52,710 nt of DNA from a virus. Taxonomy: Duplodnaviria > Caudoviricetes. Under the pieces are notes generated by a model. The model made no database searches, was not told where the DNA came from, and worked only from the letters and a program-made list of their open reading frames with translations. Position numbers and translations under genes: made by a program. The stretch spans positions 1-52,710 of IMG/VR virus record IMGVR_UViG_3300030376_003573; one strand, written 5' to 3'. Of the stretch, positions 16,300 to 33,427 are shown piece by piece. Position 1 is the first letter of the stretch, and each line of letters opens with the position of its first letter.

Positions 16300-16303
16300 A
16301 AAA

Positions 16304-16615: not shown

Positions 16616-16623
16616 TATCTTTG
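16616..16623 (+). promoter_or_regulatory. -7 promoter element TATCTTTG
   Basis: 4 nt before ATG 16628; TTTG at 16595-16598. Confidence 0.75.
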
Positions 16624-16627
16624 CTAA

Positions 16628-16921: not shown

Positions 16922-16923
16922 CA

Positions 16924-17130: not shown

Positions 17131-17135
17131 AAAAC

Positions 17136-18281
17136 ATGCAAAAATGGAATCTAATAATTGCCTTATTGCTGTCATCTTTGGCGAATGCCCAGGATGTAGC
17201 AAGTAGTTGCGCCGTATTCGATGTTCGTATCCCGCCCGTAAGGATGATGGGGTACAACCCAGACCCACCTTTTTGGAAGGAGGTAAACTACGTAGTTCAC
17301 ATACACTACACCGACAGCACCCCCTATGAGCACAGCCTTATAGATGAGTCTGTTGTGTGGGATGCACACGAGCACCTCAACGAAGAGTTCGAGGAGGCAA
17401 TGTTTACTTTCGATCTGATTGCCATAGAGTACCATAACCTGGACGAGGCCGAGGGCATGAACGAAACCCTCGATATATACAATACCTGTGTCCCGTCTAG
17501 CTGGTACGGATGGTCAACAACAACAGATTACCTAGAGGATATTATTTGGGATAGGGAGCAATTCATGAATATTCATGTGTTCCCTGAATTCTGTTCAGGC
17601 ATCTTAGGGTTTGCGTGGACCGCTCAGGCAGACAACCTTCTTGACGGGGCCTGGATTAGGTCCGATGTTTTTGGTAGGATGGGAGACTACCTGTACGGGG
17701 AATACAACGGCAATAAAACTATGATCCACGAAGTGGGTCACTACCTTAGCCTCCATCACGTATTCCGAAACGCAACCTACTGCGGGGAGGATCTCGGTCC
17801 TTGCGAGGAGACGGGTGATTATGTTTGTGATACACCCCCTATAAAAACCAGCTGGAGCTGTGAGAACCCTATATGCCCTCCAGGTGCATACAACTTCACG
17901 GCAGATAACCATATGGACTATTATGTCGATTCATGTAAGCATCATTTTACTGCGGGGCAGATCGATCGCATGCACAGCATGATTTCGATTACACGCCCAG
18001 GAATCGTTAACAACGATGCAGATATATGTGTTGGTGATATTAGCGGAGACCACGTTGTGGGGATGAACGACTTAATGCTAATGCTGTACAACTGGGGGGA
18101 TGTATACTGGCAGGAAGGTGACGTCAATGGCGACGGTTTTTTCACCGTTATAGATTTCCAAATAGTACTAGCACATTGGGGTACGGTTTGCTTTGGGGCT
18201 GAGCTTGACCCATTTTATCGGGAGGAACGACTTGATAAATCAATAATCCAAGAAGTATTTCCATACGCGATACGAGAGTAA
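17136..18281 (+). CDS. secreted M43 (pappalysin/ulilysin-like) zinc metalloprotease with C-terminal dockerin-like tandem
   Basis: Signal peptide LANA|Q; HEVGHYLSLHH; GDYVCDTPP; NHMDY Met-turn; FTAGQIDRM; two GDxxGDxxVxxxD motifs. Confidence 0.88.
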   Translation: MQKWNLIIALLLSSLANAQDVASSCAVFDVRIPPVRMMGYNPDPPFWKEVNYVVHIHYTDSTPYEHSLIDESVVWDAHEHLNEEFEEAMFTFDLIAIEYHNLDEAEGMNETLDIYNTCVPSSWYGWSTTTDYLEDIIWDREQFMNIHVFPEFCSGILGFAWTAQADNLLDGAWIRSDVFGRMGDYLYGEYNGNKTMIHEVGHYLSLHHVFRNATYCGEDLGPCEETGDYVCDTPPIKTSWSCENPICPPGAYNFTADNHMDYYVDSCKHHFTAGQIDRMHSMISITRPGIVNNDADICVGDISGDHVVGMNDLMLMLYNWGDVYWQEGDVNGDGFFTVIDFQIVLAHWGTVCFGAELDPFYREERLDKSIIQEVFPYAIRE

Positions 18282-18306
18282 GCTCTAATTTTTAAAACAC
18301 ACAGAC

Positions 18307-18564
18307 ATGCCACAAGGAAAAGGTACATACGGTAGTAAAGTGGGAAGACCCCCTAAAGCAATGAAGGGGATGAAGGTCATGAAAAAAGGGGGGAAGGTAT
18401 CAAAACTTACAATTTCAAATAAGTCCGTTATGGTAGATCCCCCCAAAGGGTTTCACTGGATGGAAGAGGGTGGCAGATACTACCTTATGAAGGGGGATTA
18501 CAAGCCCCATCCAGGAGCTTTAAGGCAGGCTAAGTTTAAGCAGGCCAATCACCCCAAGTCATGA
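18307..18564 (+). CDS. basic hypothetical protein
   Basis: MPQGKGTYGSKVGRPPK; Lys-rich. Confidence 0.7.
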   Translation: MPQGKGTYGSKVGRPPKAMKGMKVMKKGGKVSKLTISNKSVMVDPPKGFHWMEEGGRYYLMKGDYKPHPGALRQAKFKQANHPKS

Positions 18565-18707
18565 AGATTAACAAGAAATATTTAGCTGGAAGCAAAGACC
18601 CTAAGCGACGTGCCGCTTTAATCAAAAGGATTGCGGCTATATACAAGAAGGGTAAACCATACCCAAAGAACTTAGATGAACTTATGAAAGAAAGAGATTC
18701 ATTATGA
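18561..18707 (+). CDS. 48-aa basic protein (not in ORF track)
   Basis: MKINKKYLAGSKDPKRRAALIKRIAAIYKKGKPYPKNLDELMKERDSL; ATGA overlaps on both sides. Confidence 0.75.
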   Translation: MKINKKYLAGSKDPKRRAALIKRIAAIYKKGKPYPKNLDELMKERDSL

Positions 18708-19021
18708 AAGCGAAAAAAACATACAAGAAGGGAGGTAAGTTTCCCGACTTGACTGGTGACGGTAAAGTAACAAGAGCTGACGTCCTCAAAGGTCGTGGCG
18801 TCTTCAAAGCTGGAGGCAAGATGAAGACGTACAAGAAGGGTGGCATGGCTGGACTCAGCGGGCCACAGAAAGAAGTGTACCGCAGAGGCTTGGCAGCATA
18901 CATGTCTTCTGGCAACAGACCGAAAGTTTCTCAACACGCCTGGGCCATGGCTAGAGTGAAAAGTGACTTTGGTAAGAAGGAAGCGGCAAAGATTAGAGCT
19001 GGAAAGGGCAAGAAAAAATAA
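18704..19021 (+). CDS. basic protein with EF-hand/dockerin-like DLTGDGKVTRAD motif
   Basis: YKKGG repeats, DLTGDGKVTRADVL, VYRRGLAAY..WAMARV. Confidence 0.75.
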   Translation: MKAKKTYKKGGKFPDLTGDGKVTRADVLKGRGVFKAGGKMKTYKKGGMAGLSGPQKEVYRRGLAAYMSSGNRPKVSQHAWAMARVKSDFGKKEAAKIRAGKGKKK

Positions 19022-19025
19022 TGCT

Positions 19026-19033
19026 TATATTTG
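19026..19033 (+). promoter_or_regulatory. -7 promoter element TATATTTG heading the capsid operon
   Basis: Intergenic TAnnTTTG. Confidence 0.75.
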
Positions 19034-19053
19034 CATTCATATAACTAACAATT

Positions 19054-19455
19054 ATGGCTACAACCACTGCAACAATTACACTTTCGAGCGGGGACCTTAC
19101 GGGTGACGCTCTTCAGCTGTCAACTACAGCGACACTCACCAAGGCGGGAACGCTTACTGGTCTGTCACAGACTACTGGTGTTGGTAGAAAAACTACTACC
19201 GCTACTTCTCAGTACACTCTGTTTGATGGTGACGCTTACGCTAATGGATCCCACAAGGTTTACTTGAAGAACACTAGTGCTGTCGCTACTGAGTTTTTAA
19301 TTATTGAAATTAACTCTGAGCAGATGGGCAAGCTTTACGCTGGTGATTGGGCGTTCTTCCCATGGGAAGCAAATGCTGACACTAACGATATTAAGATTAC
19401 CCCAAGTGTATCTACTAGCTTGACTTTAGAGTACGCTCTGTTTATTGACGAATAA
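19054..19455 (+). CDS. putative capsid-associated beta protein
   Basis: Thr/Ala-rich; paralog of 19455 and 692. Confidence 0.6.
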   Translation: MATTTATITLSSGDLTGDALQLSTTATLTKAGTLTGLSQTTGVGRKTTTATSQYTLFDGDAYANGSHKVYLKNTSAVATEFLIIEINSEQMGKLYAGDWAFFPWEANADTNDIKITPSVSTSLTLEYALFIDE

Positions 19456-19862
19456 TGGCAACAGTAACCGCAGCTCTTAGCATAAACAGCGCTGATGTTC
19501 TGACAAGCAATCTAGCTTTGTCGGTTAACTCGGTTATTAGCTGTGACTCTGGCAGTTTGATCAGAGCAAAGGTAAAAGGCACGGCTGCTGATACTGATGA
19601 TAAGCTATTGTACAAGGCGAATCAGAAAAATGACAGAGCCTATCTGTTTATCAGAAACTTAGAAACGGAGCTGGAGAACTACATCTACGTTAGGAACGAA
19701 ACAGAAGCTAACACCGCGCTTGTAGCCAAAATTGGCGGTGGAGAGTTTGCGTTTATTCCTATTGCTCCAGACAAAACATACGAAGCTATCGCCACAAAGG
19801 TTGACTCAATCATTGAGTACGGCGTCTTTGGTAACGACAACTCAGCAGTTCAACTCGGATAA
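19455..19862 (+). CDS. putative capsid-associated beta protein
   Basis: YLFIRNL..KIGGGEFAFIP; paralog of 19054. Confidence 0.6.
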   Translation: MATVTAALSINSADVLTSNLALSVNSVISCDSGSLIRAKVKGTAADTDDKLLYKANQKNDRAYLFIRNLETELENYIYVRNETEANTALVAKIGGGEFAFIPIAPDKTYEAIATKVDSIIEYGVFGNDNSAVQLG

Positions 19863-19872
19863 TAAATAAGAC

Positions 19873-20247
19873 ATGTCTCAAAGTTCATCATTCCCTAAGA
19901 GCACGTATTTAATTAGCGCCACCACTACTGATGTTAACGCTACGCCAAAGCACGGAAGTTTTAGTGCGGTTACTTGCACTGTAGCAGGCACGGTAAAAGT
20001 AAGAGGTGGAGGTGTTTATGAATACGTAGACGTTAGTGATGCCTCCGATGTTCATACAAGCTTTATTGACCCAACCACGGGTGTGGTTTTTGCGGATGAC
20101 GCTGCCATGAATACTCGCGGTGACGGGTTCTATCAGAAGATAAACTCTGTTGATACAGACATTGCAATGATCGCTGGGCAGACAGTTTATGGAAGATTTG
20201 ATAGCGTAAAAAGCGACGGTACATTTACTGGATTCGCTTACACATAA
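19873..20247 (+). CDS. putative virion structural protein
   Basis: AGQTVYGRFDSVK tail; capsid operon context. Confidence 0.55.
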   Translation: MSQSSSFPKSTYLISATTTDVNATPKHGSFSAVTCTVAGTVKVRGGGVYEYVDVSDASDVHTSFIDPTTGVVFADDAAMNTRGDGFYQKINSVDTDIAMIAGQTVYGRFDSVKSDGTFTGFAYT

Positions 20248-20267
20248 TAGACACTTAATTAAATAAA

Positions 20268-21404
20268 ATGGAACAAAATACAATCGAAGAGATTGGCGGA
20301 ATGAAGGTCTTCAGTAATCCTGAGGACCTTGCTGCATCTATGAACTCCGCTTCAGAAGCCACAACTGAAGCACCCGTAGAACAACAAGAAGCTGTCGTAG
20401 AACAGCCAGTTGAACAACCAATTACCGAGGAGCCACCCGTACAGGAATCGGCTCCCGTGGTAGAAGAAACCGTACAGCCTCAAGCAGAAACTGTTGAGAC
20501 TGAACAACATACAGAACCTGAGTATTCAGAACAAGATATCGAGTCTGCTGTCTTTTCTTTCTTAAGCGATAAGCTGGGAAGAAACGTGGCTTCTCTTGAT
20601 GACTTATCTGCTACTCAACAGGCTGAAGCAAAAGCTTTAGACGAAAGAGTCGAGGCCATCGCAAAGTTCGTAGAGGAAACGGGCCGAGCACCAGAAGATT
20701 GGTTTAGATACCAGTCATTGAATCCAGAAGGTATGGATGATATGACAGCTATTCGCATTGAAATGGCGAATGAGTATCCAAACCTTTCGTATGATGAACT
20801 CAATCTTTTAGTCAGCAGCAAGTACAAGCTAGACCCCGACACGTATACCGAAGAGGAGGTTACGCTTGGCAAGCTTCAGCTGAAAATGGATGGTGATAAA
20901 GCTAAAAAGGGCATCGAGAATATCAGAGGTAGCTACTCTGCTCCCGCCCCGAAAGAACAGTCAGCATCCGAACCAGAATCTATAATTGACGAGAGCTGGA
21001 TATCTGAAATGTCCAAGGAAGTTGATGCGTTAACGGGTCTAGAGTTTGACCTTGGTGACGAGAAGACTTTTGAATTCGGTCTTGACGATCAGTACAAAAG
21101 TCAATTAAAGAATCGCAATGCTCGTCTCGACGAGTTCTTTGATCCCTATGTAGGGGAGGATGGAAGCTGGGACTACGACCTGCTATCGTCTCACATGGCT
21201 GTCATTGACAACATTGACAGAATTGTTAAGTCTGCTTACACCAGAGGATTGGGTGACGGACAGAAAACACTTGTGGACACAGCGGCCAATGTCTCTACTG
21301 AAACTCCGCAACAAGGGAATCAAAACCAACAAACCAACCCGTTGGCCGACCAACTAAAAAATATTATGGGAGGTCAGTCCAACAGACTAACTTTTAAAAT
21401 CTAA
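20268..21404 (+). CDS. putative capsid scaffold/assembly protein
   Basis: Acidic, disordered N-terminus, directly before the major capsid gene. Confidence 0.6.
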   Translation: MEQNTIEEIGGMKVFSNPEDLAASMNSASEATTEAPVEQQEAVVEQPVEQPITEEPPVQESAPVVEETVQPQAETVETEQHTEPEYSEQDIESAVFSFLSDKLGRNVASLDDLSATQQAEAKALDERVEAIAKFVEETGRAPEDWFRYQSLNPEGMDDMTAIRIEMANEYPNLSYDELNLLVSSKYKLDPDTYTEEEVTLGKLQLKMDGDKAKKGIENIRGSYSAPAPKEQSASEPESIIDESWISEMSKEVDALTGLEFDLGDEKTFEFGLDDQYKSQLKNRNARLDEFFDPYVGEDGSWDYDLLSSHMAVIDNIDRIVKSAYTRGLGDGQKTLVDTAANVSTETPQQGNQNQQTNPLADQLKNIMGGQSNRLTFKI

Positions 21405-21410
21405 AAAATT

Positions 21411-22829
21411 ATGGCTACTACTGCTGCGGCGGCAGGTGGTGTGGACGGAGCTCCAGCTGACCTGCGATTATCGCCCGAAACTTATACTACTATCGGCACT
21501 TTGCTGGATCAAAACAAAGATTTTGTAATCCCACAACTCGTCGAAACATATGGTGATCAAGGTATCACTGGGATGTTGAAATTAACTGGCGCCATCCAAG
21601 GTGGGGGTACTTCTGACGAAGTGCGATACCACGAAGTTGGAAGACGTCACCGTTTGGTTGCTTGTAATTCTTCTGGCGTTTCAGGAGTGTCAGGAGACCA
21701 AGCTACTTTGAATTACGACGCTGGCTCTAACGCTATTGGTGTAAACGACGTTGTTATGGACAGCGTTGATGGTCGCAGATATGTTGTTATCGCAACATCA
21801 GCTGCTTCTCCGCTTACTTCAACGACTGCTACGCTTGCTTCTTTGGACGGAGCGACCGCAACTGACAATCACGGAGCTGCAGATACAGGTGCGTTTATTC
21901 ACATCGGAAATCTTTATGGTCAGGGAACTGAGCAACCAGGTCACTTCACCGATGCTGACATGGTGAAACGTCAGAATCCATTTATGATTGTTAAGGATCG
22001 ATTCCAAGTGAACGGTTCACAAGCAACTAATATCGGCTGGGTTGACACTGGCGGAGGTGAATATCGTTGGTTCATGTACGGTGAGCAAGAAGCTCGCAAG
22101 CGTTTCGAAGACCGTCGTGAAATGATGATGTTGTTTGCTGAATCAGGCAACGATAATGACTTCACCGATGGTGCTACAGCTGGCTTGGCTAACGCTCAAG
22201 ACGCTGGTTTGGGATCAGAGGGTTATATCTCTGCTGTTGAAAATAGAGGTATTGTTGTTTCTAACGCAAACGCCAATCCATTGGACAGCTTTGCTGAGTT
22301 TGACGACATCATCTTGGAGCTCGACAAGAACGGAGCTACTTCTGAGTACGCTATGTACTTGAATAGAAAGCAAGATTTGGCGATTGACGACATGTTGGCG
22401 TCAGGTATCTCTACTGGAGTTACTGCTGGTTTGGCTGGTCAGTTCGGTGCGTTTAACAACGATGCTGATATGGCTGTAAAGCTTGGCTTTAAGTCGTTTA
22501 CTCGTGGTGGTTACACTTTCCACAAGCATGACTGGAAGCTGTTGAACGATCCTACTTTGTTAGGTGCAACAAACTTCTTGCAGGGAGCTATGGTTCCTAT
22601 GAGTCAGATTGCTGATGCTCGTACTGGTGTTAAGGCTCCTGCCCTCGCTATGTACTACAAGGAGGCTAACGGCTACAACAGAGAGATGGAGCACTGGGTA
22701 ACTGGTGGTGGTGTATTGGGTCACACAAACAATGGAGATGCTGGTAGAGACGTTGCTACGTTCCACTACCGCTCTGAGATTGCTTTGGTGACTCGTGCTG
22801 CAAACCAACACGTTATCATTAAGGGCTAA
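21411..22829 (+). CDS. major capsid protein
   Basis: 472 aa; strongly biased codon usage; follows the scaffold; GFKSFTRGGYTFHKHDWK; followed by a UUCG hairpin. Confidence 0.85.
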   Translation: MATTAAAAGGVDGAPADLRLSPETYTTIGTLLDQNKDFVIPQLVETYGDQGITGMLKLTGAIQGGGTSDEVRYHEVGRRHRLVACNSSGVSGVSGDQATLNYDAGSNAIGVNDVVMDSVDGRRYVVIATSAASPLTSTTATLASLDGATATDNHGAADTGAFIHIGNLYGQGTEQPGHFTDADMVKRQNPFMIVKDRFQVNGSQATNIGWVDTGGGEYRWFMYGEQEARKRFEDRREMMMLFAESGNDNDFTDGATAGLANAQDAGLGSEGYISAVENRGIVVSNANANPLDSFAEFDDIILELDKNGATSEYAMYLNRKQDLAIDDMLASGISTGVTAGLAGQFGAFNNDADMAVKLGFKSFTRGGYTFHKHDWKLLNDPTLLGATNFLQGAMVPMSQIADARTGVKAPALAMYYKEANGYNREMEHWVTGGGVLGHTNNGDAGRDVATFHYRSEIALVTRAANQHVIIKG

Positions 22830-22845
22830 TAACAGTTAGGTGGAT

Positions 22846-22868
22846 GGGAGGGGCTTCGGCCCTTCCCC
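22846..22868 (+). terminator. GC hairpin with UUCG loop after the capsid gene (weak U-tail)
   Basis: GGGAGGGGC-TTCG-GCCCTTCCC. Confidence 0.65.
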
Positions 22869-22895
22869 TTCAGCTACAACAAATAACTTTTTATT

Positions 22896-23216
22896 ATGGA
22901 GAAATTTTTGTTTTTTAATACTGGTACTAATGATTCGCTTTGCATGCCCGCTCGTCGTTTGACGGACATGGGGATGGAATCAAATGGCACCTCTTTGATT
23001 TTGCACTTTATTGCTCCCTTTGGCGGGAATGATGGTGTTGGAGAAATTACTGTAGACGTTACAATTACTGACAACAAGGGTAGGCTTGTTATGGAGGCTA
23101 TCGCAGAAGAAATTCGTTTAGGTAAAAATCCTTTTATTACCGTTTGCGATGACACTACTTCTGAGTTCCTTCACTCAGACATTCTTAGCGTTGGTTCAAT
23201 CACTGACTTCGCATAA
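22896..23216 (+). CDS. small virion protein, 'KFLF' family copy 1
   Basis: Paralog of 23228 and of the N-terminus of 24532. Confidence 0.65.
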   Translation: MEKFLFFNTGTNDSLCMPARRLTDMGMESNGTSLILHFIAPFGGNDGVGEITVDVTITDNKGRLVMEAIAEEIRLGKNPFITVCDDTTSEFLHSDILSVGSITDFA

Positions 23217-23227
23217 TACTAGAAACC

Positions 23228-23563
23228 ATGGACACAAGTAAAAAATTCCTATTCGTAAATCCAGACAACACTGCTGGTGAATTTGATTCTTCAAAGCTTT
23301 TCCCTGTATCTAGTTTACAGGGTATTCAAGAGCTCAACGCAACTAGCGTTCGTCTCGCCGTATCTGATTTTGGTCAGGCAGATGACACATTGATTGACAT
23401 CACTGTGGATTCAGGAACAGCAAAGACTTACATCAAGGACTTGGTTGAGGCTATCAACTTTGCAAAGCAATCGGTTATCAACCTTGCTGATGCAAGTGAT
23501 GAGACTTCTTTTTCGCCCGATGTAGACTTTGGCACAGACCCAGTAATCACAGTTGGTTCGTAG
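23228..23563 (+). CDS. small virion protein, 'KFLF' family copy 2
   Basis: Paralog of 22896. Confidence 0.65.
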   Translation: MDTSKKFLFVNPDNTAGEFDSSKLFPVSSLQGIQELNATSVRLAVSDFGQADDTLIDITVDSGTAKTYIKDLVEAINFAKQSVINLADASDETSFSPDVDFGTDPVITVGS

Positions 23564-23585
23564 TAAATCACAAACCTCATAAAAG

Positions 23586-23612
23586 AAAGGCTCCCTTCGG
23601 GGGGCCTTTTTT
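23586..23612 (+). terminator. intrinsic terminator
   Basis: AAAGGCTCCC-TTCG-GGGGGCCTTT followed by a T-run. Confidence 0.9.
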
Positions 23613-23620
23613 ATTTTGAT

Positions 23621-23628
23621 TATATTTG
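23621..23628 (+). promoter_or_regulatory. -7 promoter element TATATTTG
   Basis: Immediately after the terminator. Confidence 0.75.
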
Positions 23629-23648
23629 TACTACTAATTCAATTTAAT

Positions 23649-24485
23649 ATGACTACACAAACTAAGAAGTCTCCTGGGAGACCTAAAAAAACCCAGGCAC
23701 CTGCACAGGCAGTAGCACCTGCTGCCCCAGCTAAAAAGAAAAAGCCTACCATCAGAAGGAAAGAAGAGGTTAATCAGCACAAAGAGTATGAGATAACTAA
23801 GGGTGGAGGAATCGTGTTCATGCTTCCTCAAAAAGGCGTAACCGTATACGACAAAGAAAACGACACTGTTAGGGAGATCAGATACTGCCCTAACGAACAG
23901 TCTGTCTTTCGAGATGAGCAGTCTGAAAACGCCAAAAGGGAATCTGTTTCTTTTAGAGAAGGCAGGCTTTTTGTTCCCAAGGAAAAACCAAACTTGCGGA
24001 AGTTCTTAGAGCTACATCCTTTAAATAAGTCAAACGGAGGGACAGTATTCTCTGAGGTGAACAAAAAGAAAGATGCAGAGAAAGAACTGCAAAAAGAGTT
24101 CTTAACTACCGATGCTGTAGCTTTAGTAAGAGATACGGACATACAGGATCTACTGCCTGTTGCTATGTACTTTAACGTGAGTATTAACTCTCCAGTATCA
24201 GAGATTCGATTTAACCTCCTTAGAATCGCTAAGAGCAAGCCTCAGGAGTTTATTGAGTCCTTTGATTCGCCACAAGTGCAAGCTCGATCTGTTGTGGCTC
24301 AAGCTAAAGACTATCAAATCATCAACGTAAAGCCCGATGGTGTTTACTGGTTCGACTCTAATGGACTAATTGTATCTGTCCCAGTAGGTCAAGACCCGCT
24401 AGACGTCATGGTTAGATTCTGTTTAACAGAAAAAGGAGCCTCGGTGCTATCCGCATTAGAAGAAAGGCTAGACAAGCTAGGATAA
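23649..24485 (+). CDS. conserved morphogenesis-region protein of unknown function
   Basis: Basic N-tail, REIRY motif; has its own promoter and terminator; ATG 23649. Confidence 0.7.
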   Translation: MTTQTKKSPGRPKKTQAPAQAVAPAAPAKKKKPTIRRKEEVNQHKEYEITKGGGIVFMLPQKGVTVYDKENDTVREIRYCPNEQSVFRDEQSENAKRESVSFREGRLFVPKEKPNLRKFLELHPLNKSNGGTVFSEVNKKKDAEKELQKEFLTTDAVALVRDTDIQDLLPVAMYFNVSINSPVSEIRFNLLRIAKSKPQEFIESFDSPQVQARSVVAQAKDYQIINVKPDGVYWFDSNGLIVSVPVGQDPLDVMVRFCLTEKGASVLSALEERLDKLG

Positions 24486-24487
24486 AG

Positions 24488-24513
24488 AAAGGCCACCTTC
24501 GGGTGGCTTTTTT
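24488..24513 (+). terminator. intrinsic terminator
   Basis: GCCACC-TTCG-GGTGGC followed by T7. Confidence 0.9.
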
Positions 24514-24519
24514 GTTTCG

Positions 24520-24527
24520 TATATTTG
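24520..24527 (+). promoter_or_regulatory. -7 promoter element TATATTTG
   Basis: 4 nt before ATG 24532. Confidence 0.75.
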
Positions 24528-24531
24528 TTTC

Positions 24532-25845
24532 ATGGACAGAAAGTTCTTCTTTTTTCGCAGAGAGCCAGAGTCAGAGACCAGTGCATCGTTTTCAGATACG
24601 GGTGTAGGTCTCAGCACAATAGCTATACCTTCTGAAAACTTGACGTTCATCACGGCTGCTAAAGAAAAAGTAATATTTACATTCAAGGATTGCAACGGCT
24701 TTGATGAGTCATCTCTTCAAGAAGGGGAGTCAATACCTAAAGCTAATATTACTGTAGCCTGCAAACAGGGTGATGAAGCGGGATTGATTGAAGATGTGAT
24801 CAACTTTATGTCTAGGTCCACACCTAAGAACATCATGAAGTTTGATGTAGTCGAACGAAATTCTACGTTTGATAAAGCTGTGGTTGACGAGGTGGATGAT
24901 GTCACATCTGTTGTTCCTGCCTCTCCTATCAATACAGTAACAAAAGAAGTTTCTATTGGAGATAAAGAAAAAGAATTCCAAGGAACGATAGCTGAGGTTT
25001 TCTTCAATGAAAGCTTGCCAGTATTAGATTTCAATCATGAAGGTTTAGCTAATTATGCCAACGGCAATAGCATCAATGCTGGATGGAGAAACTTTGGAAC
25101 ACTAAAAAGTAGCGATTCCACCCTTGGGATTTTAGGCGGTACGGTTAATGCGGTTACAGAAGCTGGAGAAAGCACGTTAATTAAAAAGGCAGCCACTATC
25201 GGTTCTACTGATGGATTGCGTTTTGGGGCTGATATAAACGTAACCTCCACAGATTACACTATATACTTAGCGTTTAACACAAACGGATTGGCCGCTAGTT
25301 CTGATTATGGTATTGGGGCTATCTATGCCGACAATGAGGGAGAGACCTTTGGCTTTGGCGGCAGACCACAGAGCGACGGTGTGCTAAGCGCGACCAACAG
25401 TGGGTTACATTTAAACACAAGTGTGTTTGCTATTCGCCATGATGGTCTTACAGGATACCCTGCTTTTGTAAGCACGAATACAACGGAGGGTGGAACAAAG
25501 TCTTTCGATATTCCTGATCGCAATGTAGACGCCTTAGATTATAACCCTAACAACGTATTTGTTGTCAGAAGAGACAAAGCATTCAATATGTATCTCCACA
25601 ACAGAGATGGCGATATAGTAGCTAAGATACCAGCAAAAACAAAGTTTTTAGACCCATTTCTCACGTCTTCCTCTCCTGGCAGGACCGACGGTGACTTAAA
25701 GCTAAGGACACTAGGCAGGGCAAATAGCGCCGCCATATCTGGTAAGATATACTTGAACAGGTTTGGTGTTATCAATAGAGACGTTGGCGCCGATGAGGCG
25801 GCGAAGATAGCCAGACAACTCTTCAAGATATACGGGGAGAAATAA
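24532..25845 (+). CDS. virion protein: 'KFLF' family N-domain fused to a beta-rich (possibly lectin-like) domain
   Basis: N-terminal ~120 aa aligns with 22896/23228; C-terminus is beta-rich. Confidence 0.6.
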   Translation: MDRKFFFFRREPESETSASFSDTGVGLSTIAIPSENLTFITAAKEKVIFTFKDCNGFDESSLQEGESIPKANITVACKQGDEAGLIEDVINFMSRSTPKNIMKFDVVERNSTFDKAVVDEVDDVTSVVPASPINTVTKEVSIGDKEKEFQGTIAEVFFNESLPVLDFNHEGLANYANGNSINAGWRNFGTLKSSDSTLGILGGTVNAVTEAGESTLIKKAATIGSTDGLRFGADINVTSTDYTIYLAFNTNGLAASSDYGIGAIYADNEGETFGFGGRPQSDGVLSATNSGLHLNTSVFAIRHDGLTGYPAFVSTNTTEGGTKSFDIPDRNVDALDYNPNNVFVVRRDKAFNMYLHNRDGDIVAKIPAKTKFLDPFLTSSSPGRTDGDLKLRTLGRANSAAISGKIYLNRFGVINRDVGADEAAKIARQLFKIYGEK

Positions 25846-25863
25846 CAGCCTATTTCTTTTGCT

Positions 25864-25871
25864 TATATTTG
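25864..25871 (+). promoter_or_regulatory. -7 promoter element TATATTTG
   Basis: 4 nt before ATG 25876. Confidence 0.75.
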
Positions 25872-25875
25872 TATT

Positions 25876-26646
25876 ATGGTAAGCGTATTACAAGTATATA
25901 CAGCTCTAAGGGACCTCGCTAACAAAGAGCAGAAGGGTTTCATCACGCCTCAAGTATTCAATTCATTTGCAGCTCTAGCTCAGATGAACATATACAACGA
26001 AATGTTTGCTGAGCTTGTAACGGCTAAGCGCTTGAGCCGACAGAATTTTGATCCTGGTAGAGACAAGTCACTAAGAAAGCAAAAGCAAGAGGACTTGGCC
26101 TTTTACTTGAGAAGGAAAGCTGCTTTACTGGATTTGGAATACAACAACGGCTTGCTAGAGAAGCCTTCTGATTTATCTAAGATAGTATCTATATACGCAG
26201 GCTCTTTGCTTGATCCCCAAGCCGCTACAAATTCCAACCAGGATTTAGTGAGCTGCGAGCTAGTATATGATCCTGAGAAGATTGACAGAATAGTAGGCAG
26301 TAACCTTTCTTACCCTACAGAGAGCTTCCCAGTGGCGTTAGTCTCTGCTGTAGACATAGAAATATTCCCACCTACAGTCCCCGTAGTTTACTTAAGCTAT
26401 TACGCCAAGCCTACTTCGTTTGATAGCGAAGGAAACATATTGCCTGACGCACCATACTATGACTTCAGAACCGCTGAGTATAACGGCGAGTCGCTGGAAG
26501 TGTTTAACTCGCAGGGCTCTAGGAACTTTATGTTGCCCCCTCACTGCTTGACGGAGGTGGTCATGGAGCTGGCTAAGTTGATTGGAATTAGATTGAGAGA
26601 AACGCAGGTCTCTGTGTTTGCGTCACAAGAAGAAGCATCTGAATAA
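25876..26646 (+). CDS. tail ring/adaptor (tail tubular) protein
   Basis: LANKEQKGFITPQVFN..AQ N-terminus characteristic of crAss-like ring proteins; position in the tail operon. Confidence 0.65.
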   Translation: MVSVLQVYTALRDLANKEQKGFITPQVFNSFAALAQMNIYNEMFAELVTAKRLSRQNFDPGRDKSLRKQKQEDLAFYLRRKAALLDLEYNNGLLEKPSDLSKIVSIYAGSLLDPQAATNSNQDLVSCELVYDPEKIDRIVGSNLSYPTESFPVALVSAVDIEIFPPTVPVVYLSYYAKPTSFDSEGNILPDAPYYDFRTAEYNGESLEVFNSQGSRNFMLPPHCLTEVVMELAKLIGIRLRETQVSVFASQEEASE

Positions 26647-27473
26647 TGGCATTCAATAAAGTAAAACTCAGCGAAATCATAAGAGATTTCATTATTACTC
26701 TTGACGGAGACGACTATGCTAGTAATACTTCGGATACAGCTATAAGAAACTTTGCGCTAAGGGGTATACGTGAGATTGGTTTTGATCTCGGCAAAAAGGT
26801 GAAGTCCTTAAAAAGCTCTGTACAGTCTAATAATACTGTGGCTTTGCCTCAGGATTTTGTTGATTTGATTAAGATCGGGATCGTAGACTCTGATGGTATA
26901 CTCAGGGTCTTTGGTGAGAATAAGAATATAAATTACTCTAGAAAGACAACGTCCCCTAATGTTGCTACGGATAGCGCTTCAGGCCCACTAAACATAGAGG
27001 ATAACTTTATCGACAATAGGGAGGATGACAAGACCGCTACGGACAATAGCTCTGGATCTGATAACGATTTCGGTCAATACGTATTTGAGAACTATATATA
27101 CCAGGGTGGCGTAGGTAGGCTGTACGGTGCTGGGGGTGGACACCTAGCTGGAGAGTACAGATTAAACCTCGATCAAGACAGGATAGAGATTGAAACGAAT
27201 GAAAGTTTTGGGGATGTAGTCATCGAATACATCGCCGACGAGGCCAGGTCAACTGATCCTGAAGTGCATGTGTATGCTGAAGAAGCCTTGCGCTGCTATA
27301 TGTATTATAAGATTGTTGAGCGTAAATCCTCTGTGCCAGCCAACGAGAAGGCTAGAGCCAGGGCTGAGTTTTACAACGAGAGAAGAAAGGCTAACGCACG
27401 ACTCAACAACTTCACAAAAGACGAAGCACTCAAGACCATTCGAAAGAACTTTATGCAAGCGCCTAAGTACTGA
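26646..27473 (+). CDS. tail ring/tubular protein
   Basis: LPQDFVD..IG, VHVYAEEAL..Y motifs; precedes the stabiliser gene. Confidence 0.65.
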   Translation: MAFNKVKLSEIIRDFIITLDGDDYASNTSDTAIRNFALRGIREIGFDLGKKVKSLKSSVQSNNTVALPQDFVDLIKIGIVDSDGILRVFGENKNINYSRKTTSPNVATDSASGPLNIEDNFIDNREDDKTATDNSSGSDNDFGQYVFENYIYQGGVGRLYGAGGGHLAGEYRLNLDQDRIEIETNESFGDVVIEYIADEARSTDPEVHVYAEEALRCYMYYKIVERKSSVPANEKARARAEFYNERRKANARLNNFTKDEALKTIRKNFMQAPKY

Positions 27474-30400
27474 TGGCTATAGATAAAAGAATACCTAGGG
27501 TCTTAAATTCAGATGCTGATAATAAGACTGCAAACAAGGTGTCCATGTCGGACGCCTTAAATCTTTATTCAGGTCCTGACAACGAAGATTTTGACGCTAC
27601 TGGCAAAAAGCTAGATGCTGGCAAGGACGTCTTGAAAAACATACGCGGTAACGTAGCCGTGCCCGCACACGAGGGGGAAGCGCTACCTATTGACGCCAGG
27701 GTTCTGGGATCTGTTGAGGATGCAAAGACTGACATTACATATTTCTTTGTGTATAGCGCGAACGGTGGTAACCACGGTGTCTACGCTTATGATAAAAGAG
27801 ATGTTCTCAGCAAAGTTGATAACCCCGATGCTCCGCTTGGACCGCCGATTATAAGAAGGATATACCGTAGCGCTCAGTTTAACTTTCCTCAGAACGGCTT
27901 CGTAAAAGGCGACATTGTATACAGCGCTGGTTCCAGGAGCTTTCCCGACCATATGGGAGATGATTTCGACAAAGATGTCATTATATACTTTACCGATGGG
28001 GCTAACGAGCCTAGAAAGATAAATGCGTATAGGGCGTTTGCCGACTCATATGGAGAAGCCATACACGGGACTGGCACAGCAAACCAATACGCCGAGGCTG
28101 ACTTCATAACCGCCTGTCCCAAGACACCTCTGAAGCCTATTGAGTTTTCTTTCGGCAGCAACCCCTCCAGGTCAGTTAGCAATTTCGAAAGAACTAATGG
28201 GTTTCAGTTTGCATATCAACACATCTATAAGGACGGAGTTGAGAGCGCGATATCTTCTTATTCTGACGTTGCTTTCCCCACTAGCGTCATAGGCCAGGGA
28301 GCAAACAGCTTTATAGATCACACCAATTTTAATAAATGCACTCTGTCAATCCCTCAATGCGGGCCAGAAATTGAAAAAGTTAGATTGCTTTGTAGACAAG
28401 GAAATGCTGGCAGCTTTTTGATTATAGACGAGATAGACGCAGGGGTTACTTCTTACGATTTTTACAACGACAGAGTTCTTAAAGGTGTTAGCACTACCGA
28501 AGTAAACAAGCAGTTCGATTCTGTTCCTAGGAAAGCAAAGGCACAAACAGTATCATCAAATAGATTGATGTACGGGAACTACCTCGATGGGTTCAATAAA
28601 TCAAATACTGTTGCTACTGCTACTGTAATTTACAAAGAAAGACCAGAGGATTACCTTTCGTTTGACGTGGGTTACATACCGTCTATTTATCGTCGGCTTG
28701 GCTCGCAGTCATTCGAAAATGAAAACCTTGCTTTCTTTTTGGATTTCAGCCAGATGCCTGATTTTCTTCCTGGGGGAACAAATCTTGATATTTCTATTAC
28801 TTTAAGCCCAGACAGAAACTTTCATTTATATGCTGGCTCTTTTAGCCAAACAAGGCAGCGTGGGCCGCAACCGCTAGGTTCGGACAACGAGCTGTTTGAT
28901 GGGGTGAATTTTTCTCAGTCTCAAGCCTTAAGCGACCTTCAAGCAATAGATCCATACGCTTTGACTAATTCTTCTACGGGACCATCTGAAGGAAAGATTT
29001 GGAATCCACAATGGACCTCCTTCGATAACATATACGCTTTTGCCAATGCAGGATTTGACTTAAACTCTTGGAGGTATACAGGCCCTTCTAGCATTGAGGG
29101 TGTTTTAATGGACTCTGTAACTAATGCTGGAATAGGTAGTTCTCCAGCTCATCCAGTTGTTATTAAGGGGGGCTCAGTTAATTTTTCTGCTAGTTTTTTT
29201 GTTCCAGAAGACCTTGAAAATGCCAGGGCCAATCTAAATAAGATTGTTAGGATAGCATTTACAAACAAGAACCTTTCGTCCTCTACGTTTGACAACAATC
29301 CCACCCCTGTATTTTATGAGGAGTACGGGATTCAGATACTAGATAACACCGCTGTTTCTTCGTATGAGTTTGATTTGGGTCTTTCTAGTGGGGACATCAT
29401 ACCTCAACACTATATCGGTCAGAACAACGGCAATACAGACCCAAGGAACAAGCTTATAAATGCTGTTGCTGGCGAGGGGAAAACAAATGATGGCGGAAGA
29501 CCTATAGGGTTCTTTATATTCAATAGGGGAAGACCTACATTTATGCTCGATAACGTTCTAGGTTCTGATTTTCTCGCTATCGGTGAGTTTGACCCCTATT
29601 TTGGGAACAGTACAGAGACTAGTAGTCATTTTAGTCTCGCCTTGGTAGATTTCGCAGATGCCGAGCCTTTAAGCGTTATACACGACACCGCAAGTAATGC
29701 GTCGTCTGAAGGTCGTCCCGCTACTGGATGGATCGCAATATCCAAAGAGGATTTAGACCAATACGGAACCAACATGAATGCATGGCTGATTTCTAAAGGT
29801 ATAGGCACTGGTGGGATTCAGGGGTTTCAGAACAATCCTTATGGAGATAATTCGGACTCAAGGGTTACCAAGGGGTACGGATATCAGCTGGGCTACCTCG
29901 AAACTACGGGAGAATTTTCAAATGATTTCTCCCCTTCACAGCCAAGATATTTTTATTCGGCTGTAGCGTTTCCACCAGGTATTTTCGGGGGTGCAGGTGG
30001 TGGCTTAGGCGGCGGCTTAGGCGGCGGAAACCCTATCAATGACCCTGATATAATCTTTCAATACGGAGTCTTAATGGACGGCGAAGGTGGTCCAGGGGGC
30101 GGCCCAGCCAGGGGTGAAAACAGCGAGCTTGAGTACGATAAGCTAAGGATGAGTGATCAGGGATCGGTTACTGTAAACCCCTTGGTCACATTTAATGAGG
30201 TAGAGGTTCCGACCTACCATTACAACGAGACCGTCTTTTATGGTGGCTCTTTGAGGCCGATAAGCACTGCGGCTGATGTGCAGTTATTTGGCGGCGGAGA
30301 CGGAGAAGAAGATGGGGGGTATCAACCAACGGTTTTGCCGTTCTTGAAGATGAACCCCGTAACCACCCAACAGGTGGCTATATTTGACGGCCTTGATATA

Positions 30401-33400
30401 ACGGGCTACGAAACCATAATAGTCGAGGCAGAGTCATTCAAATACTTAATGCCTTTTGAGGACTTGGAAAACCCAGGCTTTCTTGACTCTAAGAGCGTAA
30501 CATTTAAAAGAAATCAATCTACGATTGAGCTGACTGAAAAATCTATAAACTTCTACAGCGACGAGTCAGACTTCAACGGAACAGAATCGTTTAAAACAGA
30601 GGCGAACCACGACTTCGGAATCGTTTACTACGACGAAAGGGGTCGCCACGGGTTTGTAAACTATCTAACAACAGCCTTCGTAGATGGATACTCTAACCTT
30701 GAAAGAGGAGAAAACAAAGGAGCAGTGGAAATCAGCTTGAAGTTGGGGGGAGAGCCACCTTCTTGGGCTCATAGCTACAAGATAGTTTATGGCAAAAACA
30801 GCACGGTTGAGGACTTCGTTCAGTATATATCTGGAGGGGCCTTTGGCGCCGCTGACCCCGACGACTTTGAAGTCGGAGGTAATGAGAGCAGCAATATATA
30901 CGTGTCTCTAAACTACTTGCAGGGACACCCAATTTCTTACGTCAATTCTTTTGGCGCTAGAACCCCAGAGGGTGGTCTGAACATGTACAAATTCCAAGAA
31001 GGGGACAAGCTTCGTGTTATATCACACTTCAACAGCGGGTCCATAAACTACGTGTCTCACGAATTTGAGGTTGTGGACTTGGTGGTTTTAGGCGAAGATG
31101 AAAACCCGCTGTCAACTACTCCCGTCCCAGATAACAAAAAGGGTGAGTTCTTGGTATTGAAGGACAACCCTGAAGCTGCAGGGTTTTCATTTGGCGATAT
31201 AATTAATGGAACCCATTTTTGGAACAACAACTGTTTAATAGAGGTTCGAACGGCAAAAAAATCGCTCGATCCAGACGAGCAGATTTATTACGAGGTGAGC
31301 GATCACTACAGGGTCGCAAAAAACCCTCAGGGAATTTTGGTTCACGACGTAAATCCAGTTGTTGTAACCAAGGGTGATGTTTGGTTTAGGCCTGTTGCCG
31401 CGAACGTAAGAAACCTGGAGGGAGGAGTTTACGAGGATATTATACTTGATAACGACGGAGACGACATTGGCTCTGTGTCCAATTTCGTAAATGTATTTAT
31501 GGAGACAGAATCTGCAAGCGACCTGTTTAAGTCGAACTCTTTTTCAAGGGGCAGACCCAATGTAATCTTTGAGGACGCTACAGAAACAAGAAGAGAGGCT
31601 ACAATAACGTACTCAGACGCTAGCAACCCAGAGTCTCCAAAGATTAGATATTCTTCTTTCAATGCCTCTACAGCAAACTTCAAGGATCTTGTCGATAGGT
31701 ACGGAGATATACAGTACATGGGTAATCACGACCCGTTTGTCGTCGTTATTCAAAAAGAAAAAATCAGCCTTATACCAGTAGACAAAAATATTCTGTCGGA
31801 CGCCTCTGGCAATCAACAGCTTATTGCCTCTCTTAATGTGCTTGGAGAGGTTATAACTTACGGTGGTGTTTCTGGTTGCGATGATGACCCTTCGTCTGTT
31901 TATGATTCGGGGGAAGAGGTATACTTTTGCAACAAGTCTCTCTCTAAAGTGTACAGATTTACTAGGCAATCTGGCGTTGAAGAAATATCAGAGCTAGGAA
32001 TGTCCTCTTTAATTAGGGCGTCTTTGAAGACTGCTGTAGAATCTGGGGATCAAGTTAGATTGATTGGAGGTTTTGATACACTCAAAGAAGAGTACTTGTT
32101 TTCGATTACAAACATTCCGATTATATCTACTTTCGGTGTTGATGAGGTTTTACAAGATTCGGCTACTGTTGCGCCTACAGAGCTTGAGCCAAACATAGTA
32201 ATAAATCCTGCGGACGTTTTAGATTTTGGAGAGCTATCCCTTACGGATACTATTCAACCAAAAGAGGTCATAATATCTAACGATGGATTAGCTAACTTGA
32301 TTATAACCGACTTTGACATAAACGATGGTGAGGCCATAAACTTTGAGTTGGTTTCCTTCAACTCTAATGTTAGCGCCGACAACCCAATGGAGATAGAGCC
32401 TGGTGGATCAGAAACAATACTGATTTCTATTATACCCCCAGAAAATGAGGGGCCAATAAACAGTTTCTTAGAGGTATACAGTAATAACCTAGAATCACCT
32501 CACGATTTAAATCTAACAGTTTCATTCAGAAGCATAGGAGACGATACTGATAATGGCGGTTCAGAAGATGATTCTGATAGCGGGGCTTTGCCGCCGTTGC
32601 TGGACGCATACAATAATTTTTATGGAGCCAACTTACAACAAGAAGAGATGAGTCAAGAATTAGCATTTCAATATTTACAAGACTTAGAGGGTACTCCAGG
32701 CGAGCCCACGTTATCCGATTTAGCAAACTTTTTGGGCAGCGCAGATAACAATCAGTTCGATGTTAATCGAGTTAGATTTGACACTGATGCAGATGGAATC
32801 GTTAGCGCTCTAGATCTTATACAGTTTCTTGCTATGTATGGAGAAGAGTATCAGCAAAACACAGGCATGTTTTCTGGTTTAGATCCAGCGTCAGGTAGCG
32901 CCCCACTACCTAAAGCTCTTCCCCCACCACCGAATAAGCCAAAGCCAAGCACGGTAAACTACTTTAAGGATGTTGATGGGGCGATAAACTACCTGTTTGT
33001 TCAGAACGAGCTTACAGTGGGAGAGTATCATTTGTTAAGAGCTCAAATCAATGACAACTTTAGCCTTAATTTAAATGAGCAGGGTGCAGTAGACACTATG
33101 GATATAGTTAAAATGCTGCAGGTATTCAATCAGACAACGGATCCTAACGAGCCCGCTTTTGTTAGCACTCCAACTGCGGACCAAGGCGGGATCCCCTCTG
33201 GTCCGTCTTCCCTGGAGGCTATACTCTGGCTGATAAACGACGGGACCATGACTGTGGGTCAGTACTTCTATCTTGCTAGCTACGTTAAATTAGCAGCAAA
33301 GGCTGATGCTGATGAAAATAATGCTGTCTCCACTCCAGACCTATTAATGATGTTGAGTGTGTGGGGATTCGGAACACAGCAATCTGGAACTTCATACGGA

Positions 33401-33427
33401 CTTAATGATCTGGCTTTTAATCTGTAG
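27473..33427 (+). CDS. tail stabilisation/muzzle-like protein (N-terminal part) with a large insert, an Ig-like domain and 3 dockerin-like repeats
   Basis: YFTDG.NEPRKIN, QFAYQHIY.DG.ES, NRLMYGNY, FGIVYYDERGR, GGFDTLKEEYL motifs. Confidence 0.75.
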   Translation: MAIDKRIPRVLNSDADNKTANKVSMSDALNLYSGPDNEDFDATGKKLDAGKDVLKNIRGNVAVPAHEGEALPIDARVLGSVEDAKTDITYFFVYSANGGNHGVYAYDKRDVLSKVDNPDAPLGPPIIRRIYRSAQFNFPQNGFVKGDIVYSAGSRSFPDHMGDDFDKDVIIYFTDGANEPRKINAYRAFADSYGEAIHGTGTANQYAEADFITACPKTPLKPIEFSFGSNPSRSVSNFERTNGFQFAYQHIYKDGVESAISSYSDVAFPTSVIGQGANSFIDHTNFNKCTLSIPQCGPEIEKVRLLCRQGNAGSFLIIDEIDAGVTSYDFYNDRVLKGVSTTEVNKQFDSVPRKAKAQTVSSNRLMYGNYLDGFNKSNTVATATVIYKERPEDYLSFDVGYIPSIYRRLGSQSFENENLAFFLDFSQMPDFLPGGTNLDISITLSPDRNFHLYAGSFSQTRQRGPQPLGSDNELFDGVNFSQSQALSDLQAIDPYALTNSSTGPSEGKIWNPQWTSFDNIYAFANAGFDLNSWRYTGPSSIEGVLMDSVTNAGIGSSPAHPVVIKGGSVNFSASFFVPEDLENARANLNKIVRIAFTNKNLSSSTFDNNPTPVFYEEYGIQILDNTAVSSYEFDLGLSSGDIIPQHYIGQNNGNTDPRNKLINAVAGEGKTNDGGRPIGFFIFNRGRPTFMLDNVLGSDFLAIGEFDPYFGNSTETSSHFSLALVDFADAEPLSVIHDTASNASSEGRPATGWIAISKEDLDQYGTNMNAWLISKGIGTGGIQGFQNNPYGDNSDSRVTKGYGYQLGYLETTGEFSNDFSPSQPRYFYSAVAFPPGIFGGAGGGLGGGLGGGNPINDPDIIFQYGVLMDGEGGPGGGPARGENSELEYDKLRMSDQGSVTVNPLVTFNEVEVPTYHYNETVFYGGSLRPISTAADVQLFGGGDGEEDGGYQPTVLPFLKMNPVTTQQVAIFDGLDITGYETIIVEAESFKYLMPFEDLENPGFLDSKSVTFKRNQSTIELTEKSINFYSDESDFNGTESFKTEANHDFGIVYYDERGRHGFVNYLTTAFVDGYSNLERGENKGAVEISLKLGGEPPSWAHSYKIVYGKNSTVEDFVQYISGGAFGAADPDDFEVGGNESSNIYVSLNYLQGHPISYVNSFGARTPEGGLNMYKFQEGDKLRVISHFNSGSINYVSHEFEVVDLVVLGEDENPLSTTPVPDNKKGEFLVLKDNPEAAGFSFGDIINGTHFWNNNCLIEVRTAKKSLDPDEQIYYEVSDHYRVAKNPQGILVHDVNPVVVTKGDVWFRPVAANVRNLEGGVYEDIILDNDGDDIGSVSNFVNVFMETESASDLFKSNSFSRGRPNVIFEDATETRREATITYSDASNPESPKIRYSSFNASTANFKDLVDRYGDIQYMGNHDPFVVVIQKEKISLIPVDKNILSDASGNQQLIASLNVLGEVITYGGVSGCDDDPSSVYDSGEEVYFCNKSLSKVYRFTRQSGVEEISELGMSSLIRASLKTAVESGDQVRLIGGFDTLKEEYLFSITNIPIISTFGVDEVLQDSATVAPTELEPNIVINPADVLDFGELSLTDTIQPKEVIISNDGLANLIITDFDINDGEAINFELVSFNSNVSADNPMEIEPGGSETILISIIPPENEGPINSFLEVYSNNLESPHDLNLTVSFRSIGDDTDNGGSEDDSDSGALPPLLDAYNNFYGANLQQEEMSQELAFQYLQDLEGTPGEPTLSDLANFLGSADNNQFDVNRVRFDTDADGIVSALDLIQFLAMYGEEYQQNTGMFSGLDPASGSAPLPKALPPPPNKPKPSTVNYFKDVDGAINYLFVQNELTVGEYHLLRAQINDNFSLNLNEQGAVDTMDIVKMLQVFNQTTDPNEPAFVSTPTADQGGIPSGPSSLEAILWLINDGTMTVGQYFYLASYVKLAAKADADENNAVSTPDLLMMLSVWGFGTQQSGTSYGLNDLAFNL

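Follow-up and report, generated by a model that had tools for sequence, protein, structure and literature searches.

The window analysed here is the whole of a phage record from IMG/VR (IMGVR_UViG_3300030376_003573; 52,710 bases, completeness rating 86%), which encodes a secreted M43 protease, a large tail-tip protein of the crAss-type muzzle kind and a small basic protein. On balance it seems probable that all three carry calcium-loop modules of the dockerin/EF-hand kind, and that these modules are separate additions with separate jobs. The argument is carried by what the domains are and how well the modules are conserved, by the split muzzle gene, by the lack of co-occurrence of protease and muzzle arm in related records and by the exchange of this arm between muzzle proteins. 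The M43 enzyme, the type-I dockerin, the crAss-type muzzle and the EF-type loop are all known kinds of element; what is new is a conserved phage-borne protease-dockerin family, a muzzle that is split and bears an appended arm, and the stretched single-loop units of that arm.

The original prediction, made from this DNA, had listed six segments of one dockerin-type motif, and all six were located in the sequence at the positions given for them. The M43 open reading frame (ORF) at 17136-18281 has DISGDHVVGMNDLMLMLYNWG from nucleotide (nt) 18036 and DVNGDGFFTVIDFQIVLAHWG from nt 18120, the ORF at 27473-33427 has DTDADGIVSALDLIQFLAMYG at 32780, NLNEQGAVDTMDIVKMLQVFN at 33068 and DADENNAVSTPDLLMMLSVWG at 33305, and the ORF at 18704-19021 contains the segment DLTGDGKVTRADVL. 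A pattern search of the six-frame translation found the motif in no further ORF of the window. The strict dockerin-type pattern has 2 sites in this translation and a looser pattern has 5, with 0 matches to either in each of 200 residue shuffles; since the looser pattern was written post hoc from known matches, the fair chance test is that of the strict pattern only. The likeness between the protease and the protein of 1984 amino acids (aa) encoded at 27473-33427 is that of one loop and its helix (26-35 profile columns), not of a whole module.

The protease ORF displays the following features.

17136-18281, + strand: secreted M43 (pappalysin-family) metalloprotease with a C-terminal dockerin, 381 aa (Pfam, PDB sequence matches).
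17136-17192, + strand: predicted signal peptide, MQKWNLIIALLLSSLANA with Gln at +1 of the putative cleavage site (hydrophobic N-terminus, conserved Q19).
17526-17984, + strand: M43 catalytic domain (Pfam, residues 131-283) with the HEVGHYLSLHH zinc site and the NHMDYY Met-turn.
18027-18191, + strand: type-I dockerin with two repeats of loop and helix (starting at nt 18036 and nt 18120) between Cys298 and Cys352 (Dockerin_1).

The Pfam family Peptidase_M43 matched the protein with 62.1 bits (cut-off 23), and its sequence matches in the PDB include mirolysin (E 7.5e-12), ulilysin (E 1.2e-10) and pappalysins. The M43 family motif is HExxHxxGxxH. The phage enzyme has its catalytic domain, its zinc site (HExxHxxxxxH) and its Met-turn in common with mirolysin and ulilysin, and it differs from M43 peptidases by its phage origin, the dockerin fusion and a Ser in place of the motif Gly. 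Conservation was followed in an alignment of 20 homologues with 39-94% identity. Because the zinc site (H198, E199, H202 and H208), the Met-turn (M260, D261, Y262 and Y263) and 11 cysteines are invariant in these homologues, the protease is most likely an active enzyme that works outside the cytoplasm. A scan of N-terminal hydrophobicity detected a classical signal peptide in this protein only within the structural module; its hydrophobic stretch is the strongest among the scanned ORFs of the module except for that of a TTG-start ORF at 23616, which does not have the layout of a signal peptide. The residue that follows the stretch, Q19, is near-invariant in the 20 aligned homologues, and a Gln at +1 fits the "Q-rule" described for signal peptidase I substrates of Bacteroidetes (PMC5837995). 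The protein had been called a secreted M43 protease, and this description stands, with a Sec-type signal peptide, a Peptidase_M43 match and an intact zinc site; the protease would be exported via Sec. As a candidate part of the virion it was rejected, given its sole classical signal peptide in the structural module and its place in a variable island of secreted proteins.

A dockerin-like module had also been claimed for the protease end, and here the Pfam cut-off is reached by the tail alone: Dockerin_1 (PF00404, cut-off 22.9) scores 24.5 bits on the last 90 residues and 24.2 bits at the same tail in a six-frame search. The model matches 12 of 20 members of the protease family at E ≤ 0.001, and a precomputed PF00404 mark is present on 13 of the 120 protease homologues listed. 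The repeats begin at residues 301 and 329 and form two tandem loop-helices of ~22 residues each, 28 residues apart, with Asp or Asn at loop positions 1, 3, 5 and 12. D301, D305, D312, D329, G334 and D340 are invariant in the 20 homologues, as are the bracketing C298 and C352. We identify the protease tail as a predicted but genuine two-repeat type-I dockerin, which shares with type-I dockerins (PF00404) both repeats and the loop ligand positions, and differs from them by its phage protease carrier, the two invariant bracketing cysteines and an AELDPFYRE tail. In the stretch that follows the dockerin (18192-18281), GAELDPFYREE is conserved in the family, and many homologues end in ERGRSPFPF[KR].

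At E ≤ 0.001, 831 candidates include at least 228 homologues of the protease, all on phage-sized contigs of which the longest is at most about 81 kb. In viral records, 32 of 35 pattern matches were confirmed as loci, and 30 of the 32 keep at least one repeat by regular expression. Among cultured phages, tblastn gave one weak partial match in the catalytic domain, over 24% of the query, and PHROGs holds no family that matches the protease. In order to cover bacterial sources, one genome per species was scanned for 185,579 species with patterns of the catalytic domain, which very different catalytic parts escape; no bacterial protease-dockerin fusion was found within this reach. Ten matches in Bacteroidota or other bacteria cover the catalytic part only (23-36% identity), and the closest ones are two contigs of 1.0-1.4 kb (L084, L085) in a Methanobacteriota metagenome-assembled genome (MAG), with 61%-identical protease-dockerin fragments that are probably mis-binned phage DNA. 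Because only these two tiny contigs are close and the bacterial matches are catalytic-only, the fusion looks phage-specific, as far as catalytic-domain patterns reach. A full-text literature search found nothing on a protease-dockerin fusion or on dockerins in such phages; in the passages retrieved, a dockerin-like gene is mentioned in passing for a Vibrio phage and a dockerin-associated carbohydrate-binding module is modelled in an Escherichia coli phage tailspike.

The surroundings of the protease gene vary between related records. After the phrog_7595 gene, the window encodes an XhlA-like membrane protein and the M43-dockerin protein (16628-18564), and at the same place the sister record G020 (13600-20400) has ~5 kb of other genes. 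Two of the encoded proteins have the C-terminal domain (CTD) of the type IX secretion system (T9SS) and are over the Pfam cut-off (Por_Secre_tail, 31.9 and 31.1 bits); a third is a signal-peptide protein of 346 aa and a fourth is secreted and thioredoxin-like. In all of these G020 proteins a Gln follows the signal peptide. The stretch after the phrog_7595 gene is best described as a variable island of predicted exported cargo proteins.

The second carrier is the 1984-aa protein (P0002), which together with the next ORF comprises the following parts.

27473-32116, + strand: body of MuzA, the first part of a split muzzle of the crAss type, residues 1 to ~1548 (phrog_14478, crAss_MUZ in relatives).
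32195-32572, + strand: immunoglobulin (Ig)-like domain of the ASH/DUF1573/HYDIN-like kind, base of the arm (DUF1573, 18.2 bits, sub-threshold).
32642-32875, + strand: arm unit 1, helices, canonical calcium loop DTDADGIVSALD (nt 32780) and helix (EF-hand_6, hhalign).
32954-33163, + strand: arm unit 2, helices, derived loop NLNEQGAVDTMD (nt 33068) and helix (hhalign).
33203-33424, + strand: arm unit 3, helices, loop DADENNAVSTPD (nt 33305), helix and conserved LNDxAFNL end (hhalign).
33433-34461, + strand: MuzB, second part of the split muzzle (crAss_MUZ_C).

This protein had been proposed to be a tail stabiliser at the tail tip. The location is supported by its homology to the crassvirus muzzle protein; the function has to be revised, as the match to phrog_14478 (E 1.9e-76) and the crAss_MUZ matches of its relatives point to a muzzle protein instead. 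P0002 itself does not match crAss_MUZ (PF25731) at E ≤ 1, and its homologues P0149 (34.4 bits) and P0005 (27.6 bits) exceed the cut-off of 27, as does the ORF at 33433-34461 with crAss_MUZ_C (PF25729; 39.7 bits, cut-off 27). In BLASTP, homology of P0002 to unsplit relatives stops at residues 1544-1552, and residues 13-340 of MuzB correspond to the last ~300 residues of these relatives, collinear with and directly following the segment aligned to MuzA. The two ORFs are 5 nt apart, and the predicted muzzle gene is split in two here; a split nozzle is reported for a Pseudomonas podophage in a 2026 paper. At the split, P0002 has ~435 extra residues made of the Ig-like domain, an acidic linker, three helical units and proline-rich linkers; the aligned Ig-like domain of two homologues, P0141 and P0144, scores 30.7 and 35.8 bits and is over the cut-off of 25.5. 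A sequence search of the PDB with P0002 returned only two antibody chains at E > 0.6. The muzzle gp44 of crAss001 is a hexamer of ~1 MDa at the tail tip that is thought to touch the cell surface, according to Bayfield et al. 2023 (PMC10172136). The protein of the window is likewise a large, predicted tail-tip protein by its relatives' crAss_MUZ matches and the crAss_MUZ_C match of the downstream ORF, and it departs from gp44 in the split of the gene and in the Ig-like domain and three calcium-loop units appended there.

Each arm unit consists of a helix, a degenerate loop, a helix, a calcium-type loop and a helix. The calcium-type loops begin at residues 1770, 1866 and 1945, that is 79-96 residues apart, and nowhere does the arm have two adjacent loop-helix repeats in one module of ~60-70 aa; there is one canonical loop-helix per unit. 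When the profiles of the units were compared by hhalign with the dockerin profile of the M43 family, unit 1 matched with a probability of 76% (E 2.3e-5), unit 2 with 86% (E 5.5e-6) and unit 3 with 92% (E 6.5e-7). The arm profile also gave weak cross-matches to M43 dockerins when run on other records; among PDB sequences it matches a dockerin best (2y3n_B, E 0.035), with calmodulins next in rank (E 0.05-0.15). EF-hand_6 scores 16.6-19.1 bits on unit 1, and Dockerin_1 scores 13.4-18.0 bits in 5 of 16 relatives scanned, with 0 over the cut-off. A structure model of the arm reached a predicted local distance difference test (pLDDT) of 46.3 with 10 close homologues, which is unusable, and 60.7 with an 18-row alignment. 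The top Foldseek rows for the latter model are EF-hand proteins (calmodulins, polcalcins) at E ≥ 2. In a VIA-align comparison with 48,161 chains, 22 have Z ≥ 2, and 10 of these 22, the two top-ranked ones among them, are dockerin entries; the alignments span model residues ~158-263, a hint that units 2 and 3 pack their loop-helices like the two halves of a dockerin. By language-model features in the Protein Atlas, the nearest named clusters are Dockerin/EF-hand (0.92, 0.90).

All these tests point towards dockerin/EF-hand-like segments, as had been claimed for the muzzle, while every score is sub-threshold, so that the likeness holds and formal membership does not. In our reading the units are calcium modules of the dockerin/EF-hand type with an unusual, stretched build, and they are not members of PF00404. 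With a type-I dockerin each unit shares one loop-helix; the single canonical loop, the degenerate upstream half, the spacing of 79-96 residues and the Pfam scores under the cut-off set it apart. With EF-hand pairs such as those of calmodulin and polcalcins the arm shares a 12-residue loop of the DxDxDG type between helices, and differs in that position 12 is Asp, as in dockerins, and not Glu, and in that no EF-hand model of Pfam (PF13405, PF00036) reaches its cut-off.

The arm family is narrow. A word-indexed search of the arm region gave 13 proteins, and when 1.84 billion proteins were searched exhaustively by profile, 22 representatives had E ≤ 0.001, almost all of them C-termini of proteins of 1300-1980 aa. 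Distant members have textbook loops such as DFDGDGIVGTNDLLDVL (DxDGDGxVGxxDLLxxL) in all three units, and at the position of unit 2 they carry a canonical DFDGDGxVGxxD. In the clade of the window the loop of unit 2 has no Asp at positions 1, 3 and 5 and has drifted to NLNEQG, and in close relatives the loop of unit 1 varies or decays. The arm is exchanged independently of the body that bears it: one homologue (P0015) is 31% identical to P0002 in the body and 75% in the arm.

The third carrier is a short ORF downstream of the protease gene.

18704-19021, + strand: small basic protein of the DUF5824 family; its single loop (nt 18746-18781) is of the EF-hand type and does not make it a dockerin (Pfam).

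This protein (P0003) matches DUF5824 with 32.2 bits (cut-off 25), Dockerin_1 reaches only 12.6-15.1 bits on it, and no EF-hand family of Pfam matches it at E ≤ 1. The DUF5824 family holds 1766 proteins at E ≤ 0.001 of 1971 candidates, and a conserved N-terminal loop motif, FPDL[TN][GK]DG[KE][VI]TxAD[IV]LKGRGVF, is found in 59 of the best 120 homologues listed. The homologue in the sister record G020 does not have this motif, and those in G021 and G022 align from residue 39 onward only. The loop is an optional feature of the DUF5824 family. Regarding the partial motif that had been assigned to this protein, the EF-type loop is there and the hydrophobic dockerin helix is not.

In order to follow protease and arm across related phages, we compared 22 related viral records, many of which are incomplete. 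Dockerin_1 matches at E ≤ 1 in 19 of the 22, always in the frame of the protease except for a second match in G002, which lies in a 476-aa frame. The three records without a match (G020, G021 and G022) are exactly those that share the muzzle arm, their muzzle protein being 64-65% identical to P0002 over the full length. A direct search found no protease in these three records, which are rated 69, 87 and 100% complete, and an alignment search for further arm-bearing viral contigs gave just the same three again. Conversely, a muzzle homologue was detected in 13 of the 19 protease-bearing records, and the C-terminal ends of all 13 were inspected. Only that of G004 is dockerin-like (DTDIGGDGAIGTNDLLALLTTYG; weak match to the arm profile, E 3.3e-4), and the other 12 show Cys-rich domains, other insertions or a plain muzzle end. 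Since the arm records have no protease and 12 of 13 protease records have no dockerin-like end, protease and arm stand together only in the window and in G004. Co-occurrence in related phages, which had been named as a check on a common docking system, is therefore lacking, with 0 of 3 arm records having the protease and 1 of 13 protease records ending dockerin-like.

Further domains and loops were observed in the same records. At the point where the arm is found, the muzzle homologues of G014, G013 (L068/L069) and G015-G017 (L051/L052/L065) end in Cys-rich domains of the CCSC type, which are predicted alternative tip modules. Single dockerin-type loop-helices occur in the muzzle end of G004 (L070), in a 247-aa frame at a contig start (G003:1-744, L108) and in a Ser/Thr/Gly-rich protein of 442+ aa (G002:63073-64398, L109); PHROGs has no family for the last two. 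G022 (78,121 bases, rated 100% complete) encodes two muzzle homologues, one of 1989 aa with the arm and one of 1521 aa, and shows duplicated matches to the structural region of the window, so that a chimeric or concatenated assembly is possible.

Possible partners were sought in 201 genomes of Flavobacteriales, the order of a Chryseobacterium gleum MAG, taken as a sample of the likely host order. Dockerin_1 is over its cut-off in 61 of the 201 genomes and Cohesin in 23, so that the expectation of both domains in candidate hosts is supported for this likely host order. At E ≤ 0.001, 19 of the 27 cohesin-positive genomes are also dockerin-positive, and 46 of 65 dockerin-positive genomes are without a cohesin match. 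Because of these counts, a host cohesin could be the partner for some hosts and is not the rule. Each module may dock to the host separately, since dockerin and cohesin do occur in Flavobacteriales genomes.

Based on these data we propose that during infection the protease would leave the cytoplasm of its Bacteroidota host by the Sec route and reach the envelope, where its dockerin would most likely tether the enzyme, in a calcium-dependent manner, to a partner in the envelope or at the surface. In hosts that encode a cohesin-bearing protein, this protein may be the partner; destruction of the receptor or superinfection exclusion by the protease, as imagined in the original prediction, is pure conjecture. 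The first part of the muzzle would carry its arm of Ig-like domain, proline-rich linkers and three calcium-loop helical units at the break, and a hexameric muzzle like that of crAss001 would have six arms hanging from the tail tip. They would most likely be exchangeable, calcium-stabilised modules for adhesion or receptor contact. The optional EF-type loop of the basic protein would have its own, separate role.

A number of results weigh against this reading. On the whole protease, Dockerin_1 gives 21.1 bits and is slightly below the cut-off of 22.9, and the enzyme is without a T9SS tail, with periplasm, surface or release by lysis all possible as its destination. On the arm, Dockerin_1 reaches 13.1 bits (E 0.12), again under 22.9, and EF-hand_6 at most 19.1 bits for a cut-off of 25; units 2 and 3 scanned alone have no Pfam match at E ≤ 10. 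Because Asp is missing at loop positions 1, 3 and 5, calcium binding by unit 2 appears doubtful. Foldseek returned nothing from the PDB at E ≤ 0.001 with the arm model of pLDDT 60.7, the best VIA-align match (Z 4.1, root-mean-square deviation 1.9 Å, 55 residues) is rated weak by the tool at this mean pLDDT, and an Atlas value of 0.92 with 152 shared features is within the range reachable by chance. The hexameric stoichiometry and the exposure of the arms are both carried over from crAss001. Finally, cohesin (PF00963) has 0 matches at E ≤ 10 in the window, that is in a record rated 86% complete.

The original prediction had joined tail tip, protease and basic protein in a single docking system, in which all three bind one host cohesin-like partner and the protease is steered to the receptor site. 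Such a system would agree with the mutual recognition of the muzzle-unit and M43 dockerin profiles, with the recurrence of single dockerin-type loop-helices in the G004 muzzle end, the 247-aa frame of G003 and the 442-aa protein of G002, and with the genomes of Flavobacteriales that have cohesin, most often together with dockerin (19 of 27). We nevertheless find it improbable and abandon the idea that the three proteins are joined in this way. Neither the protease nor a Dockerin_1 match accompanies the arm in the three records that share it, one of them rated 100% complete, and of the 13 protease records in which a muzzle homologue was detected, G004 alone is dockerin-ended; protease and arm are built differently, the former with two dockerin repeats and the latter with single loops at intervals of 79-96 residues; the basic protein has a loop but no dockerin helix, and its nearest relatives are without this loop; and neither the window nor 46 of 65 dockerin-positive genomes offers a cohesin. 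A minor but real chance is left to a reading in which the loops merely stabilise extracellular modules in calcium-rich sea water and have no specific partner. The same 46 genomes without cohesin speak for it, as do the drift and decay of the loops of units 1 and 2 in close relatives, in which the helices persist, and the fact that no partner was found in the phage. Against it, both calcium loops of the protease and the bracketing cysteines are invariant over 39-94% identity, the arm has been swapped between divergent muzzle bodies, as happens with binding modules, and relatives hold alternative domains at the insertion point.

We give little credence to the alternative that the muzzle units are an unrelated helical repeat, dockerin-like by convergence or chance, and that the protease alone has a dockerin. 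It would account for units that reach no curated threshold, for a Foldseek search without significant match and a model of low confidence, and for a similarity that covers 26-35 columns only. It does not fit the textbook DxDGDGxVGxxDLLxxL loops that distant members have in all three units, the four kinds of test (hhalign, profile search of the PDB, VIA-align and Atlas) that place dockerin/EF-hand first, or the 0 matches in shuffles. Altogether, dockerin/EF-hand-type modules added separately to the three proteins remain our preferred reading.

The phage is predicted to be a podovirus that infects marine or aquatic Flavobacteriia and has a crAss-type tail tip, because matches to the 1984-aa protein, all of them distant at less than 60% identity, are confined to phages of Flavobacterium (68 records), Cellulophaga (15), Tenacibaculum (2) and Maribacter (1) and one uncultured record, and because the next ORF matches the C-terminal part of the crassvirus muzzle. 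Its + strand encodes terminase, portal, tail-fibre, virion and holin genes up to ~43.7 kb, and the replication module is on the - strand; near 43.7 kb both the coding strand and the GC skew switch. A tRNA-Arg(TCT) gene at 7923-7997 lies directly upstream of the terminase gene. The ORFs 3175-4137 and 4137-4958 are adjacent, have near-identical starts (MLGLGT[AS]VNRGGFVSGAA...) and look like tandem paralogues.

In bacteria, dockerins are assembly plugs of enzyme complexes. A bolder extension, which we regard as a long shot, is that dockerin-type modules, acquired separately and following the same docking grammar, serve phages of marine Flavobacteriia as plug-in adaptors to cohesin-bearing surface proteins of the host. 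If this were true, the six muzzle arms would be the first phage receptor-binding device to work via cohesin-dockerin contact, and cohesin scaffolds of the host would be the docking sites from which the exported protease remodels the envelope during infection. Both the protease tail and the arm are small and expressible. Independently of this extension, the protease-dockerin fusion suggests that phages borrow host docking modules to place enzymes in the host envelope. The arm of the split muzzle, in turn, would mark where crAss-type tail tips accept new surface-contact modules, an insertion point that bears on the evolution of host range in a very abundant and poorly cultured group of phages.

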